Shown here: positions 21,125-25,996 of the stretch, one piece after another | How positions within the stretch are numbered: position 1 is the stretch's first letter | How the letters are laid out: every line of letters starts with the position of its first letter | Source of the DNA: an uncultured Muribaculaceae bacterium | Lineage (GTDB): Bacteria > Bacillota_I > Bacilli_A > RF39 > UBA660 | Length of the DNA: 64,000 nucleotides | Direction of reading: 5' to 3' | Assembly (NCBI GenBank): GCA_964458035.1 | Contig: CAYWFZ010000004.1 | Location: 361 to 64,360 of the forward strand | Translations under genes and position numbers: made by a program | Notes under the pieces: generated by a model | Database searches by the model: none | Told to the model about the DNA's origin: nothing | The model's input: the letters and a program-made list of their open reading frames with translations, nothing else

Positions 21125-22288
21125 TTATGCCGTCTTAATTACTACATTTTCTGTAGTCCATGAGGACGGACATTCAACCCCATAACCTTTTAGCACCATG
21201 TTCTGAGCTTTAGCATCTTTTACTTTTACAATTGCCTCTGCTGGCATATTATTAAAAACATCATATTTATGTGACATATTGCTTGTATCAAATGAACTTA
21301 TATCCAACATAGTTAAATTAGTACATCCAGCGAACATCTTATTCACACAACTAACCTTACTCGTATCAAAACTACTCAAATCCAAAGACTTTAAATTCTT
21401 ACAATTCATAAACATTTCTTCCATATTTGTTACATTGCTTGTATTAAAGGTACTAAAATCTACTATTTCTAAAGAACTACAGTCTCTAAACATCCAATGC
21501 AAACTTGTTGCACTACTTGTATCAAAGCTGCTTATATCCAAATTGACTAAAGATTTGCACGCATTAAACATCGCAACCATATCCGTTACATTTGAGGTAT
21601 CAAACGAGCTTAAATCTATTTTTATTAAATCATAACAATAGGCAAACATATTTCCCATTTTTATAACTTTATTTGTATTGAAACTGCTTAAATCTAATTC
21701 TATTAAAGAATCATTAGAAAAAAACATACATCTCATATTCTCCACGTTACTTGTATCAAAGTGACTTAAATCCAAACTAGTTATACTACTGCATCCATCA
21801 AACATACTTTCCATATTTATCACTTTAGCAGTATCAAAATTACTTACATCAAGGATCATTAGACTACTACAATGATAAAATAATCTTTCCATTGAAGTTA
21901 CATTTCTCGTATCAAATGATCTTACATCCAAATTGTGCAAATTATTGCATCCTTCAAACATACTTGTCATATTCGTTACGTTAGACGTATCAAAATTACT
22001 TGTATTCATTTTCAATAAAGTAGTACATCCTTTAAACATGCTAGACATATCAGTTACATTCGAGGTATCTAGATACTCTAATCCTTCTATTTCTAGTAAA
22101 TTTGAAAAATAAGAAAAAAGACCTGAACAGTTTTGACTTGCCTTTACACCTGTAATAGATTGAATATATAGTATATATTTGGGGCCTGAATCTGGAAACA
22201 TCTCATTCTTAGTCTTCTCAATATAAACATCAAATTCTTCATCTGTTGCCTCTTGCTGTTCTACAGCATATTTTTTTAAATTCCTCAA
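21125..22288 (-). CDS. BspA/DUF285-type leucine-rich-repeat protein, C-terminal portion of a frame-split gene
   Basis: 387-aa ORF, opened by the ORF track with TTG. Contains 10 repeats of the ~25-aa unit L..LD.S.FDTSNVTNM..MF..C. The C-terminus aligns with that of the 849-aa paralog, and there is no signal peptide of its own. Confidence 0.8.
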   Translation of the reverse strand: MRNLKKYAVEQQEATDEEFDVYIEKTKNEMFPDSGPKYILYIQSITGVKASQNCSGLFSYFSNLLEIEGLEYLDTSNVTDMSSMFKGCTTLLKMNTSNFDTSNVTNMTSMFEGCNNLHNLDVRSFDTRNVTSMERLFYHCSSLMILDVSNFDTAKVINMESMFDGCSSITSLDLSHFDTSNVENMRCMFFSNDSLIELDLSSFNTNKVIKMGNMFAYCYDLIKIDLSSFDTSNVTDMVAMFNACKSLVNLDISSFDTSSATSLHWMFRDCSSLEIVDFSTFNTSNVTNMEEMFMNCKNLKSLDLSSFDTSKVSCVNKMFAGCTNLTMLDISSFDTSNMSHKYDVFNNMPAEAIVKVKDAKAQNMVLKGYGVECPSSWTTENVVIKTA

Positions 22289-23213
22289 TAGTCATTCCCA
22301 ATTCTAATTCTATATATTTTTCAAAATAATTGTTTTTTTCTTTGTCTGACAAACCAAAAAATCTATTTTTTAATAATGCAAGTTCAATAAGAGCTGAGCC
22401 CTCAGTATTTATATCATTACCTTGCCTTTCAACAAGATTCTTTATATATTCTTCTTCAGTCATTCCTGTTAATACCATTAATAGTTCTTTAAATTTTACA
22501 TCTTTTTCTTCATCTGATAAAACAAAAGGAACTAGATAGCCCATTACGCTTCCATTATGTTCTTCAGATAAATCAAATGTTAGGTCATCTGTTGTTTCAT
22601 GTGGAATAACTTTATTTTCAAAAGTAGTTTTTAATACAGCATCCCTATATGCCCACAACCCAGTTGGCTCGGTCTCATCATTTGTAGCAGTCATCATTAC
22701 GCCACCTTGGCTAAATGGTTCAATATATTCTTCTCCTAAAGATTCTCTTTTTTTAGCATTAGCATTTAGCTTACATTCTATATGAAACTCCTTTTGTTCA
22801 TTTACCACCTTTTTTACTGAAACAATTAATGTACCTGTCTTTGTTTCTCCAGCTAAAACATTCATCTCTTTAGGTTGAAAATCAAATGATATGAACTCAT
22901 TATCATCAGAAGAAAAGGCAATAGTTACATTAGCATCATAGTTTCTCGACGTATTTGTGACGTTATATATTAGAGTTGTTGACTCTCCTAGTTCCTTAAG
23001 CTCCTTAGAAACAAATTCTATACGCTGTTTATCGTCTGATATAAAATCCTTTCTTATCAATCCATCAAGTTTTGCACTTGTAAATATTACATTGAAATCA
23101 TCTTTATTTTCTCCTATACCAACAAGCCCATTAATCACAAGTGTTGTACTAACAGCTGCAAAACCAATTGCTAGAAAAATAATCAATATGATTATTATAT
23201 TTCTTCTTTTCAT
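22239..23213 (-). CDS. N-terminal portion of the same frame-split LRR surface-protein gene (signal peptide + conserved N-terminal module)
   Basis: Start MKRRNIII at 23213 (AGGTG upstream). The N-terminal ~160 aa are very similar to the paralog at 23316..25859. The frame ends 10 codons after an A7 tract (22271-22277), and the downstream ORF continues in the +1 frame. Confidence 0.8.
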   Translation of the reverse strand: MKRRNIIIILIIFLAIGFAAVSTTLVINGLVGIGENKDDFNVIFTSAKLDGLIRKDFISDDKQRIEFVSKELKELGESTTLIYNVTNTSRNYDANVTIAFSSDDNEFISFDFQPKEMNVLAGETKTGTLIVSVKKVVNEQKEFHIECKLNANAKKRESLGEEYIEPFSQGGVMMTATNDETEPTGLWAYRDAVLKTTFENKVIPHETTDDLTFDLSEEHNGSVMGYLVPFVLSDEEKDVKFKELLMVLTGMTEEEYIKNLVERQGNDINTEGSALIELALLKNRFFGLSDKEKNNYFEKYIELELGMTIEEFKKICCRTARGNR

Positions 23214-23302
23214 ATATACACCTACTACTATTACTACATTCATTGTATCAAACATTTGATGGACTAACACTACTTTAAGTGTATAATGACATATTGATTG
23301 AC

Positions 23303-23327
23303 AAAAAAAAGAAGCTTATACAGCTTC
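23303..23327 (-). terminator. Rho-independent terminator after the 849-aa LRR gene
   Basis: Stem GAAGCT/AGCTTC (23311-23316 and 23322-23327), 5-nt loop, then T8 on the minus strand (23303-23310). The stem overlaps the stop codon. Confidence 0.7.
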
Positions 23328-25859
23328 CTTAATTACTACATTATCTACTGTCCATCCAGTTGGTCTATCATTACTGCCTAGTGCAAGAGCCCAATCTTGT
23401 ACAGCTTTATCTTTAACATATACAGTAGCAGAAGAGTTAACCCCATCAAATATATAATTTTTACTAGAAATAGAATTAATTCGTTCATAATCTAGATTAC
23501 TTATATCTAATGTTATTAAACTATTACAATTAAAAAACATAAAACGTATATCAGCCACATTTGACATATTTAAAGATGAGAGGTCTAAATTTTTTAATTT
23601 TTTGCAATTCGAAAATAGTTGCGACATATCAGTAACATTACTTGTATCTAATGCAGTTAAATCCAAGCTTATTAACCCCTCACACTTTTCAAACATCGAA
23701 CGCATATTTGTTACATTAGATGTTTGAAAATCACTTAAATCTATACTTGTTAATACGCTACATTCCCTAAACATATTAGACATATTTGTTACATTAGATG
23801 TATCAAATTTAGTTAAAACTATATTTGTTAATTTGCTACATCTGAAGAACATGCCCGACATATCTGTTACATTAGATGTATTAAGACCTTCCAAGTCTAT
23901 TTTTGTTAGACCACTACAGCCACTAAACATGTCAGACATATTTGTTACATTGCTTAAATTTATTGATTTCATATTTATATCATTTAAAGCCATACACGAT
24001 TCAAACATATTAGACATATTTGTTACACTGCCTGTGTCCAATGGAGTTAAGTCTATACTTGTTAACCCCCAACAATTTAGAAACATCTCGGACATATTTG
24101 TTACACTGCCCGTGTCCAATGGAGTTAAGTCTATACCTGTTAAACCGCTGCATCCCAAAAACATACCCGACATATTCGTTACACTTGAAGTATTTAATGA
24201 GGTTAAATCTATATTTGTTAAATTTCTACAATTCGCAAACATTCCAGACATATTGGTTACCTTACTTGTATCTATCGAAGATATAGTTAGGCTTGTTAAT
24301 GAACTACAATTTCCAAACATTCTAGTCATAGCTGTTACATTACTCGTATTTAACGGAGTTAAGTCTATACTTGTTAAGCCAGACTCAGAAAACATTTCAG
24401 ACATATTTCTTACACTGCTCGTATCTAGTAAAGTTAAATCTATAGATTTTAAAGCATAGCATCTGCCAAATAGCGAGGACATATCTGTTACATTTCTTGT
24501 TCCATAAGAAGAAAACAATACAGATGTCAAAGCAATGCATTCATAAAACATTGAAGACATGTTTGTTACACTCGACATATTTAATGAAGATAAGTCAACA
24601 GCCAATAATGCCCTACAGAATTCAAACATTGAGGACATATTAACCACATTACTTGTATTTGCTGATGTTAAATTTATACTTGTTAAACTGCTGCATTCGT
24701 AAAACATTCTTGCCATATTAGTTACATTAACAGCATTAAGTCCCTCTAAATCAATTGTTGTTAAACTACTACAGTTGCTAAACATGTAAGACATATTTGT
24801 TACATTATTTATATTTATAGATTTTAAATTTATATCATTTAAAGCAGTACACCCCGCAAACATATAACTTATATCTGTCACTTTTGAAAAGTCTATTTGA
24901 TTTAAGTCAAAGCTTGTTATACTTTCACATCTACTAAACATAGATTGCATAGAAACGGCATAACTTGTATCAAAATACTGCATATTTCTTATCTCTTTTA
25001 ATTCTCCGAATCCTGCAAATAAACTACTCGAATCATAATTAGCATAAACCATCTCGTTTCCTTGAATATATAAAGTATATCCATTTGTTGTTTCAGTCAT
25101 ACTACCATCACCATTACGCAAATAATGTGAATCTTCAAATGTATCTTCATTTTTTACTAAATACGCCATTACAGATCTGTCTTGTGCGACTGACACATCA
25201 AACGACATAGTTCCTTCTTCATCATGCGAGTATAAAGTGTTTTCAAATTCAACTTGGGTTATTACACTAGAATTCTTCCAAAAGAATCTTTCAGCAGCAG
25301 CAGCTCTAGTTCTAATTGAATTTGATGGGAATCTAGACATCATCATTCCTGGCATACCATATTTTGTAAATTCTCCAACACTATCTCGCGCTAAAGCTTT
25401 TGCACCTAATGTAAGACTTACTTTAATTTCCTTTGGCTCAGTTAATGCCTTTTTTAATCTAATACGTATACCCCCATAGTTGCTTTCTCCTGCTGCTAAT
25501 TGCATAGTACTTGGCTCATATTCAACATCTACTAAATCATTTTCTTCTATATTATATGTAAAATCTATATCTGCATCATAACCTTTAGAAAAATTGGTTA
25601 CTTCAAAAATTAAAACATATTCTTCTCCAACTGTCGATAACTCATATGTTTCAAATTCAATATTCTTTCCTTCATTAGTTATAAAATACTCACTTACATC
25701 TTCATCATACACCATTGCTTTTGTAAAAATTACTTTAAAGTCATCTTTGTTCTCGCTTATACCAACAAGTCCATTGATAACTAGTGTTGTACTAACAGCG
25801 GCAAAACCAACTGCTAGAAAAATAATCAACATAATTATTATATTTCTACGTCTTTTCAT
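23316..25859 (-). CDS. BspA/DUF285-type leucine-rich-repeat surface protein (intact paralog)
   Basis: Start MKRRRNIII at 25859 (AGGTG upstream). It has a signal peptide, a conserved N-terminal module, and 19 recognisable 25-26-aa repeats (L.SIDL..L.TS.VTNMS.MF..C). Confidence 0.88.
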   Translation of the reverse strand: MKRRRNIIIMLIIFLAVGFAAVSTTLVINGLVGISENKDDFKVIFTKAMVYDEDVSEYFITNEGKNIEFETYELSTVGEEYVLIFEVTNFSKGYDADIDFTYNIEENDLVDVEYEPSTMQLAAGESNYGGIRIRLKKALTEPKEIKVSLTLGAKALARDSVGEFTKYGMPGMMMSRFPSNSIRTRAAAAERFFWKNSSVITQVEFENTLYSHDEEGTMSFDVSVAQDRSVMAYLVKNEDTFEDSHYLRNGDGSMTETTNGYTLYIQGNEMVYANYDSSSLFAGFGELKEIRNMQYFDTSYAVSMQSMFSRCESITSFDLNQIDFSKVTDISYMFAGCTALNDINLKSININNVTNMSYMFSNCSSLTTIDLEGLNAVNVTNMARMFYECSSLTSINLTSANTSNVVNMSSMFEFCRALLAVDLSSLNMSSVTNMSSMFYECIALTSVLFSSYGTRNVTDMSSLFGRCYALKSIDLTLLDTSSVRNMSEMFSESGLTSIDLTPLNTSNVTAMTRMFGNCSSLTSLTISSIDTSKVTNMSGMFANCRNLTNIDLTSLNTSSVTNMSGMFLGCSGLTGIDLTPLDTGSVTNMSEMFLNCWGLTSIDLTPLDTGSVTNMSNMFESCMALNDINMKSINLSNVTNMSDMFSGCSGLTKIDLEGLNTSNVTDMSGMFFRCSKLTNIVLTKFDTSNVTNMSNMFRECSVLTSIDLSDFQTSNVTNMRSMFEKCEGLISLDLTALDTSNVTDMSQLFSNCKKLKNLDLSSLNMSNVADIRFMFFNCNSLITLDISNLDYERINSISSKNYIFDGVNSSATVYVKDKAVQDWALALGSNDRPTGWTVDNVVIKEAV
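23460..24960 (-). repeat. Tandem 75-78-bp coding repeats (LRR units)
   Basis: Periodic DNA is visible by eye. The best pair is 24013-24066 versus 24091-24144, which differ at 2 of 54 positions. Confidence 0.85.
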
Positions 25860-25996
25860 ATACACACCTACTACTATTTATTCTATTGTATCAAACATTT
25901 GACGGTCTAACACCACTCTAACTGTATAATAGTTATCTAGTTTACGAATAATAGCGCACTTTCATGTCAATAAAAAAAGAACTACAAGAGTTCTTT

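Follow-up and report, generated by a model that had tools for sequence, protein, structure and literature searches.

A gene for a leucine-rich repeat (LRR) surface protein is split into two overlapping reading frames exactly at a run of seven adenines, and the question which this locus raises is whether the run works as an ON/OFF switch, whether it marks a gene that was inactivated recently, or whether a homopolymer was simply miscounted in the assembly. These three alternatives had been put forward in a sequence-only reading of the DNA and turned out to be the right ones to weigh. Throughout the text, the window denotes the whole stretch of DNA that was analyzed (64,000 nucleotides, 28% GC). 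As outlined in the following, a fresh knockout mutation is the most likely explanation and a sequencing slip a less likely one. The gene itself consists of these parts:

22239..23213, minus strand: 5' part of the split gene with a 324-aa product, identical to the database protein P0001 (ORF list; AlphaFold2)
21125..22288, minus strand: 3' part, read in the +1 frame (ORF list, Pfam, NCBIfam)
22271..22277, minus strand (T7 on the plus strand): A7 run at which the reading frame changes, with A6 (Lys-Lys) as the in-frame state (sequence and alignment A1)

In agreement with the sequence-only reading, two open reading frames of 343 aa (22239..23270, minus strand) and 387 aa (21125..22288, minus strand) were found in different frames with an overlap of 50 nt (ORF list), and re-reading of the sequence placed the A7 run at 22271-22277, where one additional nucleotide splits the gene. 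On the minus strand, one frame reads ATT GAG GAA TTT AAA AAA ATA TGC TGT AGA ACA GCA AGA GGC AAC AGA TGA (22288-22239), while the other frame of the same segment begins TTG AGG AAT TTA AAA AAA TAT GCT. Removal of one A yields ...GMTIEEFKKYAVEQQEATDEEF... and a single open frame of 695 aa, just as had been proposed. The likeliest upstream start is the ATG at 23213 (MKRRN...; MKRRNIII...) with an AGGTG ribosome binding site (RBS) 6 nt before it, and the truncated product therefore comprises 324 aa and the restored protein 695 aa. The truncated product ends with ten out-of-frame residues, ICCRTARGNR, followed by TGA (C-terminal end EEFKKICCRTARGNR).

The joining of the two ORFs is not a matter of chance, because a 403-aa query spanning the repaired junction matched intact proteins of 585-628 aa nearly end to end, with 98-100% query coverage; the best match was P0002 (E 7.8e-101, 47% identity). 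In alignment A1, which is gapless at the junction, EEFKK followed by YAVEQQEATDEEF is set against EELKQYALEQGATEEEF of P0002, EEFKNYYIEEGNTEEDF of P0008 and EEYKKNIMQEEGITEEEF of P0009, and in a wider view GMTIEEFKK followed by YAVEQQEATDEEF is set against GMTLEELKQYALEQGATEEEF (P0002), GMTIEEFKNYYIEEGNTEEDF (P0008) and GMSLEEYKKNIMQEEGITEEEF (P0009). The junction EEFKK/YAVEQQ of the restored protein thus has its counterpart in EELKQYALEQG of an intact homolog, and EEFKKYAVEQQ and EEFKKKYAVEQQ would be junction peptides of the restored frame. Homology to the intact proteins is found in the upstream frame until KK and in the downstream frame from Y onward. Since A1 aligns residue for residue, the frame change lies between TTT (F) and TAT (Y), within the A run, and the in-frame ancestor, as judged from this alignment, carried A6 (Lys-Lys). 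The colinearity noted earlier also withstood the comparison with the homologs, in which SVMGYLV/SVMAYLV and YILYIQ/YTLYIQ form invariant columns of A1.

The downstream ORF had been described as lacking both an ATG and a signal peptide. The first part of this description had to be dropped, as in-frame ATGs are present, the first of them at codon 30; the second part stood, and neither a signal nor an anchor nor any other targeting signal of its own was found on the 3' part of the split gene. A TTG at 22288 is accompanied by a weak GGGA 8 nt upstream. Separate translation of the downstream ORF into a functional surface protein was considered and rejected, because neither the TTG nor the ATG at codon 30 supplies a signal sequence.

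The encoded protein was analyzed together with its neighbor:

23316..25865, minus strand: intact tandem paralog of 847-849 aa, 17 PARCEL repeats, N-terminal module shared with the split gene (ORF list, Pfam, NCBIfam)

The likeliest start of the paralog is the ATG at 25859, corresponding to 847 aa, and the split gene and the paralog share about 34% protein identity overall. Membership in the PARCEL/DUF285 family was assigned where tandem repeats of about 25-26 aa scored above the curated cut-offs of PF03382 and TIGR02167. The 3' ORF reached an E value of 9.9e-80 and 264.5 bits for PF03382 (cut-off 25) and an E value of 2.1e-90 and 295.5 bits with 11 repeats for TIGR02167 (cut-off 30); the paralog, with 479.8 bits for PF03382 and 411.7 bits for TIGR02167, likewise lies above the curated cut-offs. 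By these sequence scores the locus clearly belongs to the PARCEL/DUF285 family. The frameshift divides the protein in such a way that the 5' part comprises the transmembrane (TM) anchor at residues 2-31, the Ig-like beta-sandwich at residues 40-155, the first section of the LRR-cap region and most of a helical insert, and the 3' part carries the end of this insert, about 11 PARCEL/DUF285 leucine-rich repeats and a conserved C-terminal cap. The insert of about 110 aa is located between the invariant motifs SVM.YLV and Y.LYIQ and was found in only some of the homologs.

An AlphaFold2 model of the upstream half, built on 49 homologs, showed a confident beta-sandwich over residues 40-155 (pLDDT above 90), followed by a mixed region and by the low-confidence helical insert (253-320), inside which the frameshift falls. 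Only the upstream half of the split gene carries the hydrophobic N-terminus KRRNIIIILIIFLAIGFAAVSTTLVING, for which the model shows a helix from residue 2 to residue 31, and this predicted N-terminal membrane anchor would place the repeats of the intact protein outside the cell. No Pfam or NCBIfam family was assigned to the upstream half, and in a fold search of the beta-sandwich module against the PDB no match was obtained at E below 1e-3, so that it can be described as a generic Ig-like sandwich only.

The N-terminal module, i.e. the TM helix and the Ig-like beta-sandwich, can be recognized by the motif GFAxVSTTLxxNG...DDFxIxFT. It also heads a Gly-rich 446-aa protein of the window (38679-40019, minus strand) with an ALK/LTK-type glycine-rich domain (PF12810), and among the database matches P0061-P0120 it heads proteins with PF19789, PF09479, PF07603 and PF00657 domains. 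Because it precedes several other C-terminal domains, the module may be regarded as a generic anchor or stalk, and it looks like an undescribed generic stalk for surface display. A further protein of the window (47085-50186, minus strand, 1033 aa) combines a Big_2 domain with a C-terminal type I dockerin domain, which hints at cohesin-dockerin surface assemblies in a 28% GC spore-former.

With respect to the integrity of the gene, its expression signals are of importance:

23214..23295, minus strand: promoter-like region, 5' UTR and RBS of the split gene (TTAGTC-N17-TACAAT, AGGTG RBS), shared with the region upstream of the paralog (alignment A2)
23308..23330, minus strand: intrinsic-terminator-like hairpin and T run, overlapping the stop codon of the paralog and separating the two transcription units

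The stretch that starts with the promoter-like site and extends through the anchor closely resembles that of the paralog (TTAGTC/TTAGAC-N17-TACAAT, AGGTG RBS, nearly identical anchor; A2). Both halves of the split gene are fully open in a window of 28% GC, where out-of-frame stops are frequent, and all of its LRR repeats score strongly in Pfam and NCBIfam. Besides the frameshift, no further disabling lesion was found in the split gene, and the promoter, 5' UTR, RBS and anchor are kept as in the paralog. The several lesions or lost expression signals of a decaying pseudogene are thus not seen, and if the gene is a pseudogene it would be a very young one. A young age of the lesion follows from the lack of any other lesion in stop-prone sequence and from the expression signals conserved with the paralog; the single lesion is either young or not real. 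As a separate observation, the two paralogs are only about 34% identical as proteins and yet closely similar in the stretch 23214-23295 / 25866-25945 (minus strand) into the anchor, which suggests gene conversion or a strong constraint on a common expression cassette.

An intact gene with a single frame change could also be one whose two frames are joined during expression, either because ribosomes shift into the +1 (or -2) frame on AAA AAA A or because the RNA polymerase slips, with one A lost or two added in part of the transcripts. Indeed, A7 lets tRNA-Lys re-pair in the +1 or -2 frame, and a 6-bp hairpin, UGCUGU-AGA-ACAGCA, begins 2 nt past the run. This hairpin (22254-22268) gave -8.1 kcal/mol for a 66-nt segment with a z score of -1.9, however, and 13 of 200 shuffled sequences folded as well as the native one; being weak, statistically not unusual and not conserved in the homologs, it is at best a poor candidate for a stimulator of recoding. 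Read on the plus strand, the same positions resemble a terminator, with a hairpin and a T run behind it. Furthermore, the A site would hold neither a stop codon nor an evidently slow codon, and the homologs spanning the region, none of them a close ortholog, are all single ORFs without the run, so that no conserved frameshift site is seen. Efficient transcriptional slippage generally needs runs of at least nine, and efficient slippage on A7 would damage many genes, as A7 is so common in coding sequence. Programmed recoding is consequently very improbable.

The possibility that the extra A is an artefact, i.e. that the gene is intact in the organism, with A6 and 695 aa, and that the consensus miscounted the homopolymer, draws on the well-known proneness of homopolymers to indel errors, on a gene which is otherwise perfect, and on a sequence which is known from a single assembly only. 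An error-prone consensus, however, would be expected to break several genes. All homopolymers of the window (A/T runs of at least 5 and G/C runs of at least 4) were checked for positions at which two long open stretches would become one upon a change of frame. This gave four sites, among which the split PARCEL gene was the only real gene split. The sites at 34321 and 31044 were rejected as natural boundaries between genes with different complete domains, and 46441-46447 was rejected as a second split gene, being a natural TGATG stop/start overlap. At this last site (46436-46447, minus strand) an A7 lies 3 codons before the TGATG overlap of a 191-aa and a 247-aa gene, which have no Pfam match. 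The window contains about 200 A/T runs of at least 6, 68 of them of at least 7, and no other one breaks a gene. Since no other gene is split at a homopolymer, a systematic homopolymer error of a noisy long-read or flow-based consensus is unlikely. Moreover, the affected gene is an accessory surface gene and belongs to the class in which real inactivations concentrate. An isolated miscount thus stays a tentative explanation, possible but on the unlikely side, and the extra A is probably present in the DNA of the organism.

Other copies of the locus were looked for in several collections. In a protein search of 5.8 billion clusters the only entry at more than 56% identity was P0001, the window's own truncated product, whose cluster has 1 member, located on a single NCBI contig (68,899 bp). 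Among the GTDB representative genomes, which do not include the source genome, only LRR-level matches in unrelated taxa were obtained. In the JGI metagenomes no match was obtained with the junction DNA pattern, in which the tract was allowed 5-9 bases, or with a scan guided by the protein. Recurrent homopolymer splits were not found among the homologs; the one other broken member, P0030 (a relative of P0005; L031 2234-3633), is disrupted by a deletion that removes about SVMGYLIPNEDT and shifts the frame, the LRR part continuing in another frame. As the coverage of the L031 contig is low (3.4x), this break may be either a mutation or an assembly error. P0029 appears to stop at the end of its contig, and P0047 is an in-frame short form.

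The gene occupies a position which differs between relatives, as shown by these two features:

21123..25959, no strand: 4.84-kb block with both PARCEL genes and their promoters (blastn, boundary sequences, gene maps of the relatives)
[quoted passage not shown]

Contigs of relatives were identified by way of the protein clusters of pheT and pheS. In the closest relatives, pheT is 96% identical and the nucleotide identity is 92-94% on both sides of the block; their position 4008 corresponds to window position 25960 and their position 4011 to window position 21122, and the 4,837 bp between are absent (blastn). Here, the DcuC terminator is followed immediately by the pheS promoter, and the same DcuC-pheS adjacency is found in a more distant, very widespread relative (pheS 90% identical). 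As closest and distant relatives both keep this adjacency, the block was gained in the lineage of the window by parsimony, and because the whole block is missing from the closest relatives the split gene is accessory and recently acquired. The block ends 3 nt past the stop codon of the split gene, just before the pheS promoter-like site; neither flanking direct repeats nor mobility genes were seen at 21123-25959. For the same reason, namely that a recently gained two-gene block is absent from the closest relatives, the gene appears dispensable and its loss cheap.

Further observations concern the surroundings of the block. The T-box leader reached 91 bits (E 1e-20), which falls just under the Rfam gathering score of 93, and was therefore missed by a default scan. 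Another Rfam match, RF03531 (n00280, a Clostridioides difficile sRNA inside a helicase gene), was obtained with 71.4 bits at 12826-12925 (minus strand) and falls within a PcrA/UvrD-type helicase ORF (12536-14638). The slot just downstream of pheT (16072-17391, minus strand) is a second variable site, which holds a 439-aa protein without Pfam match in the window, an unrelated 854-aa protein in the closest relatives and one of about 348 aa in more distant ones. The window also contains a GerQ spore-protein gene, and the host is on this account a spore-former and not a Mollicute.

A dedicated phase switch would require that slipped-strand mispairing converts A6 (ON, full LRR protein) and A7 (OFF, truncated) into each other, that the consensus caught the OFF state, and that the rate suffices to maintain both states in the population. 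The frameshift lies exactly in a homopolymer, as the sole lesion of the only homopolymer-split gene in 64 kb, and it affects a variable surface protein of a family that is linked to homopolymer contingency tracts in Mycoplasma (PMC2996958). In vaa of Mycoplasma hominis, in the account of PMC524362, A8 toggles with A7/A9 at 1e-3 to 1e-4. A young frameshift in a surface gene also resembles the OFF phase of a contingency gene, a likeness that counts against a plain slippage mutation.

These points are to be set against the properties of the run itself. The window holds 22 A7 and 36 T7 runs, nine runs of 8 and one of 9, i.e. 68 A/T runs of at least 7 in 64 kb or about one per kb at 28% GC, and the density of runs, with G/C runs of 5 or more included, is 1.5 per kb in the PARCEL pair and 1.2 per kb in the whole window. 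The coding strand of the split gene alone carries three A7 runs, two of which (22333-22339 and 22748-22754) are in frame. About 68 other A/T runs of at least 7 thus equal or exceed the junction run, which also has two in-frame A7 runs beside it in the same gene, and the ON state would be merely A6. It begins at nucleotide 937 of 2089, i.e. 45% into the gene, and is not 5'-proximal. Among the homologs the run is absent: the paralog has no run longer than 6, the junction codons read TTG AAA CAA TAT in P0002 and TAT AAA AAG AAT in P0009, and P0002 is identical and intact on 7 of the 7 contigs carrying it.

Mismatch repair sets the slippage rate. In repair-proficient Listeria, whose rates may not be those of the host, inlA slips at about 5e-7 (A6-to-A7) and 4e-8 (A7-to-A6), far below classical phase variation (PMC2831843). 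Compared with contingency genes, the run is a coding homopolymer in which a change of one base switches the frame (A7 versus A6); by the window-wide count it is neither longer nor more frequent than the background, and it does not lie near the coding 5' end as the tracts of vaa, p78 and inlA do. As far as sequence can tell, the locus thus appears to share only the trivial property of contingency genes and to lack their tract length, position and conservation.

The slipped-strand ON/OFF switch of Mycoplasma style which the sequence-only reading had suggested came out negative for each signature that can be tested in sequence (length, A6 in-frame state, mid-gene position, homologs). Nothing marks the A run as a purpose-built on/off switch, and a dedicated switch is unlikely. 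Still somewhat less probable is the wider claim that A6/A7 forms a working switch which turns display of the PARCEL LRR array ON and OFF in a gut-type Firmicute that forms spores and is low in GC; the anchored beta-sandwich would still be displayed in the OFF state. If true, it would extend coding-tract PARCEL phase variation as proposed for Mycoplasma to a walled commensal and would represent a mid-gene 'domain-shedding' switch.

The explanation we favor, with a probability of roughly one half, is a recent A6-to-A7 slippage mutation in a dispensable surface-protein gene that resulted in a truncated, LRR-less allele. The intact gene would encode a membrane-anchored PARCEL/DUF285 LRR surface protein of 695 aa. 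Replication slippage would have added one base to an ordinary Lys-Lys run (AAA AAA) in the middle of the gene, converting A6 to A7, most probably a short time ago. From the intact promoter and RBS a 324-aa anchored protein would then be made, which keeps the N-terminal beta-sandwich and loses the LRR array, and the LRR part, having no signal sequence of its own, would not be displayed. The truncated product would presumably be without LRR function, and the allele in the assembly a null or truncated one. As with any A7, the run could slip back to A6 at a low rate. A slippage mutation of this kind fits all observations, needs no special assumption and suits the tendency of accessory surface genes toward inactivation; the family also has another sporadically disrupted member in P0030, although its break lies outside any homopolymer.

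If the extra A is real, the locus adds one more surface-protein gene to those inactivated by homopolymer slippage, which is a frequent event and well understood. The locus also documents that surface genes of the PARCEL/DUF285 family are recently gained, strain-specific and quickly lost in this lineage, which matters for reading strain-level variation in metagenome bins. Furthermore, the locus may serve as a reminder that position alone should not make a phase switch out of a homopolymer frameshift in an AT-rich genome.

Among known systems, several Mycoplasma genes offer themselves for comparison. PARCEL, the palindromic amphipathic repeat coding element, is known from Mycoplasma and other microbes, where it occurs in surface proteins (Roske et al. 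2010, PMC2996958), and for MAG1330 and MAG3260 of M. agalactiae poly-G tracts were proposed to give frameshift phase variation (PMC2996958). By family the Mycoplasma PARCEL proteins are nearest to the split gene, which has in common with them the PF03382/TIGR02167 repeats, the membrane-anchored topology and an accessory, horizontally mobile distribution (PMC2996958). It differs from them in its anchor, an N-terminal TM helix with an Ig-like beta-sandwich in place of a lipoprotein signal, and in the location of the run, which is mid-gene here, whereas the tracts proposed for Mycoplasma PARCEL genes are found where the N-terminus is encoded or in the 5' flank (PMC2996958).

In vaa of M. hominis a 5'-proximal poly-A run acts as phase switch with A8 as the ON state (Zhang and Wise 1997, as cited in PMC524362), so that, according to the same account, switching there does rely on a short coding poly-A run (A7/A8; PMC524362), and p78 of M. 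fermentans is mentioned with a poly-A tract at the 5' end (as cited in PMC2831843). To the extent that these secondary accounts describe them, vaa and p78 resemble the split gene in that their coding regions, which specify surface proteins, contain a poly-A run of 7-9, where one A more or less leads to an out-of-frame OFF state. Unlike vaa as described there, the ON state would be A6 here, the run lies at 45% of the gene and the host is a spore-former and not a Mollicute.

The closest parallel to the split gene is provided by the A6/A7 alleles of Listeria monocytogenes inlA, in which a 5' poly(A) run is in frame as A7 and gives a truncated protein as A6 (Orsi, Bowen and Wiedmann 2010, PMC2831843). 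This tract starts at nucleotide 6 and is polymorphic across 106 isolates (PMC2831843). Both genes encode LRR surface proteins of Firmicutes and contain a short coding poly-A run of 6 or 7, in which a change of one base truncates the protein. They differ in the repeat family (PARCEL/DUF285 here, internalin LRR in inlA), in the position of the run, which is mid-gene here, in the longer allele (A7) being the broken one here, and in the single isolate from which the present allele is known. Because the reversion rates of inlA are low (~1e-7 to 1e-8), its alleles are to be regarded as heritable knockouts with occasional reversion, and the split gene is a new instance of this known and common kind of event.
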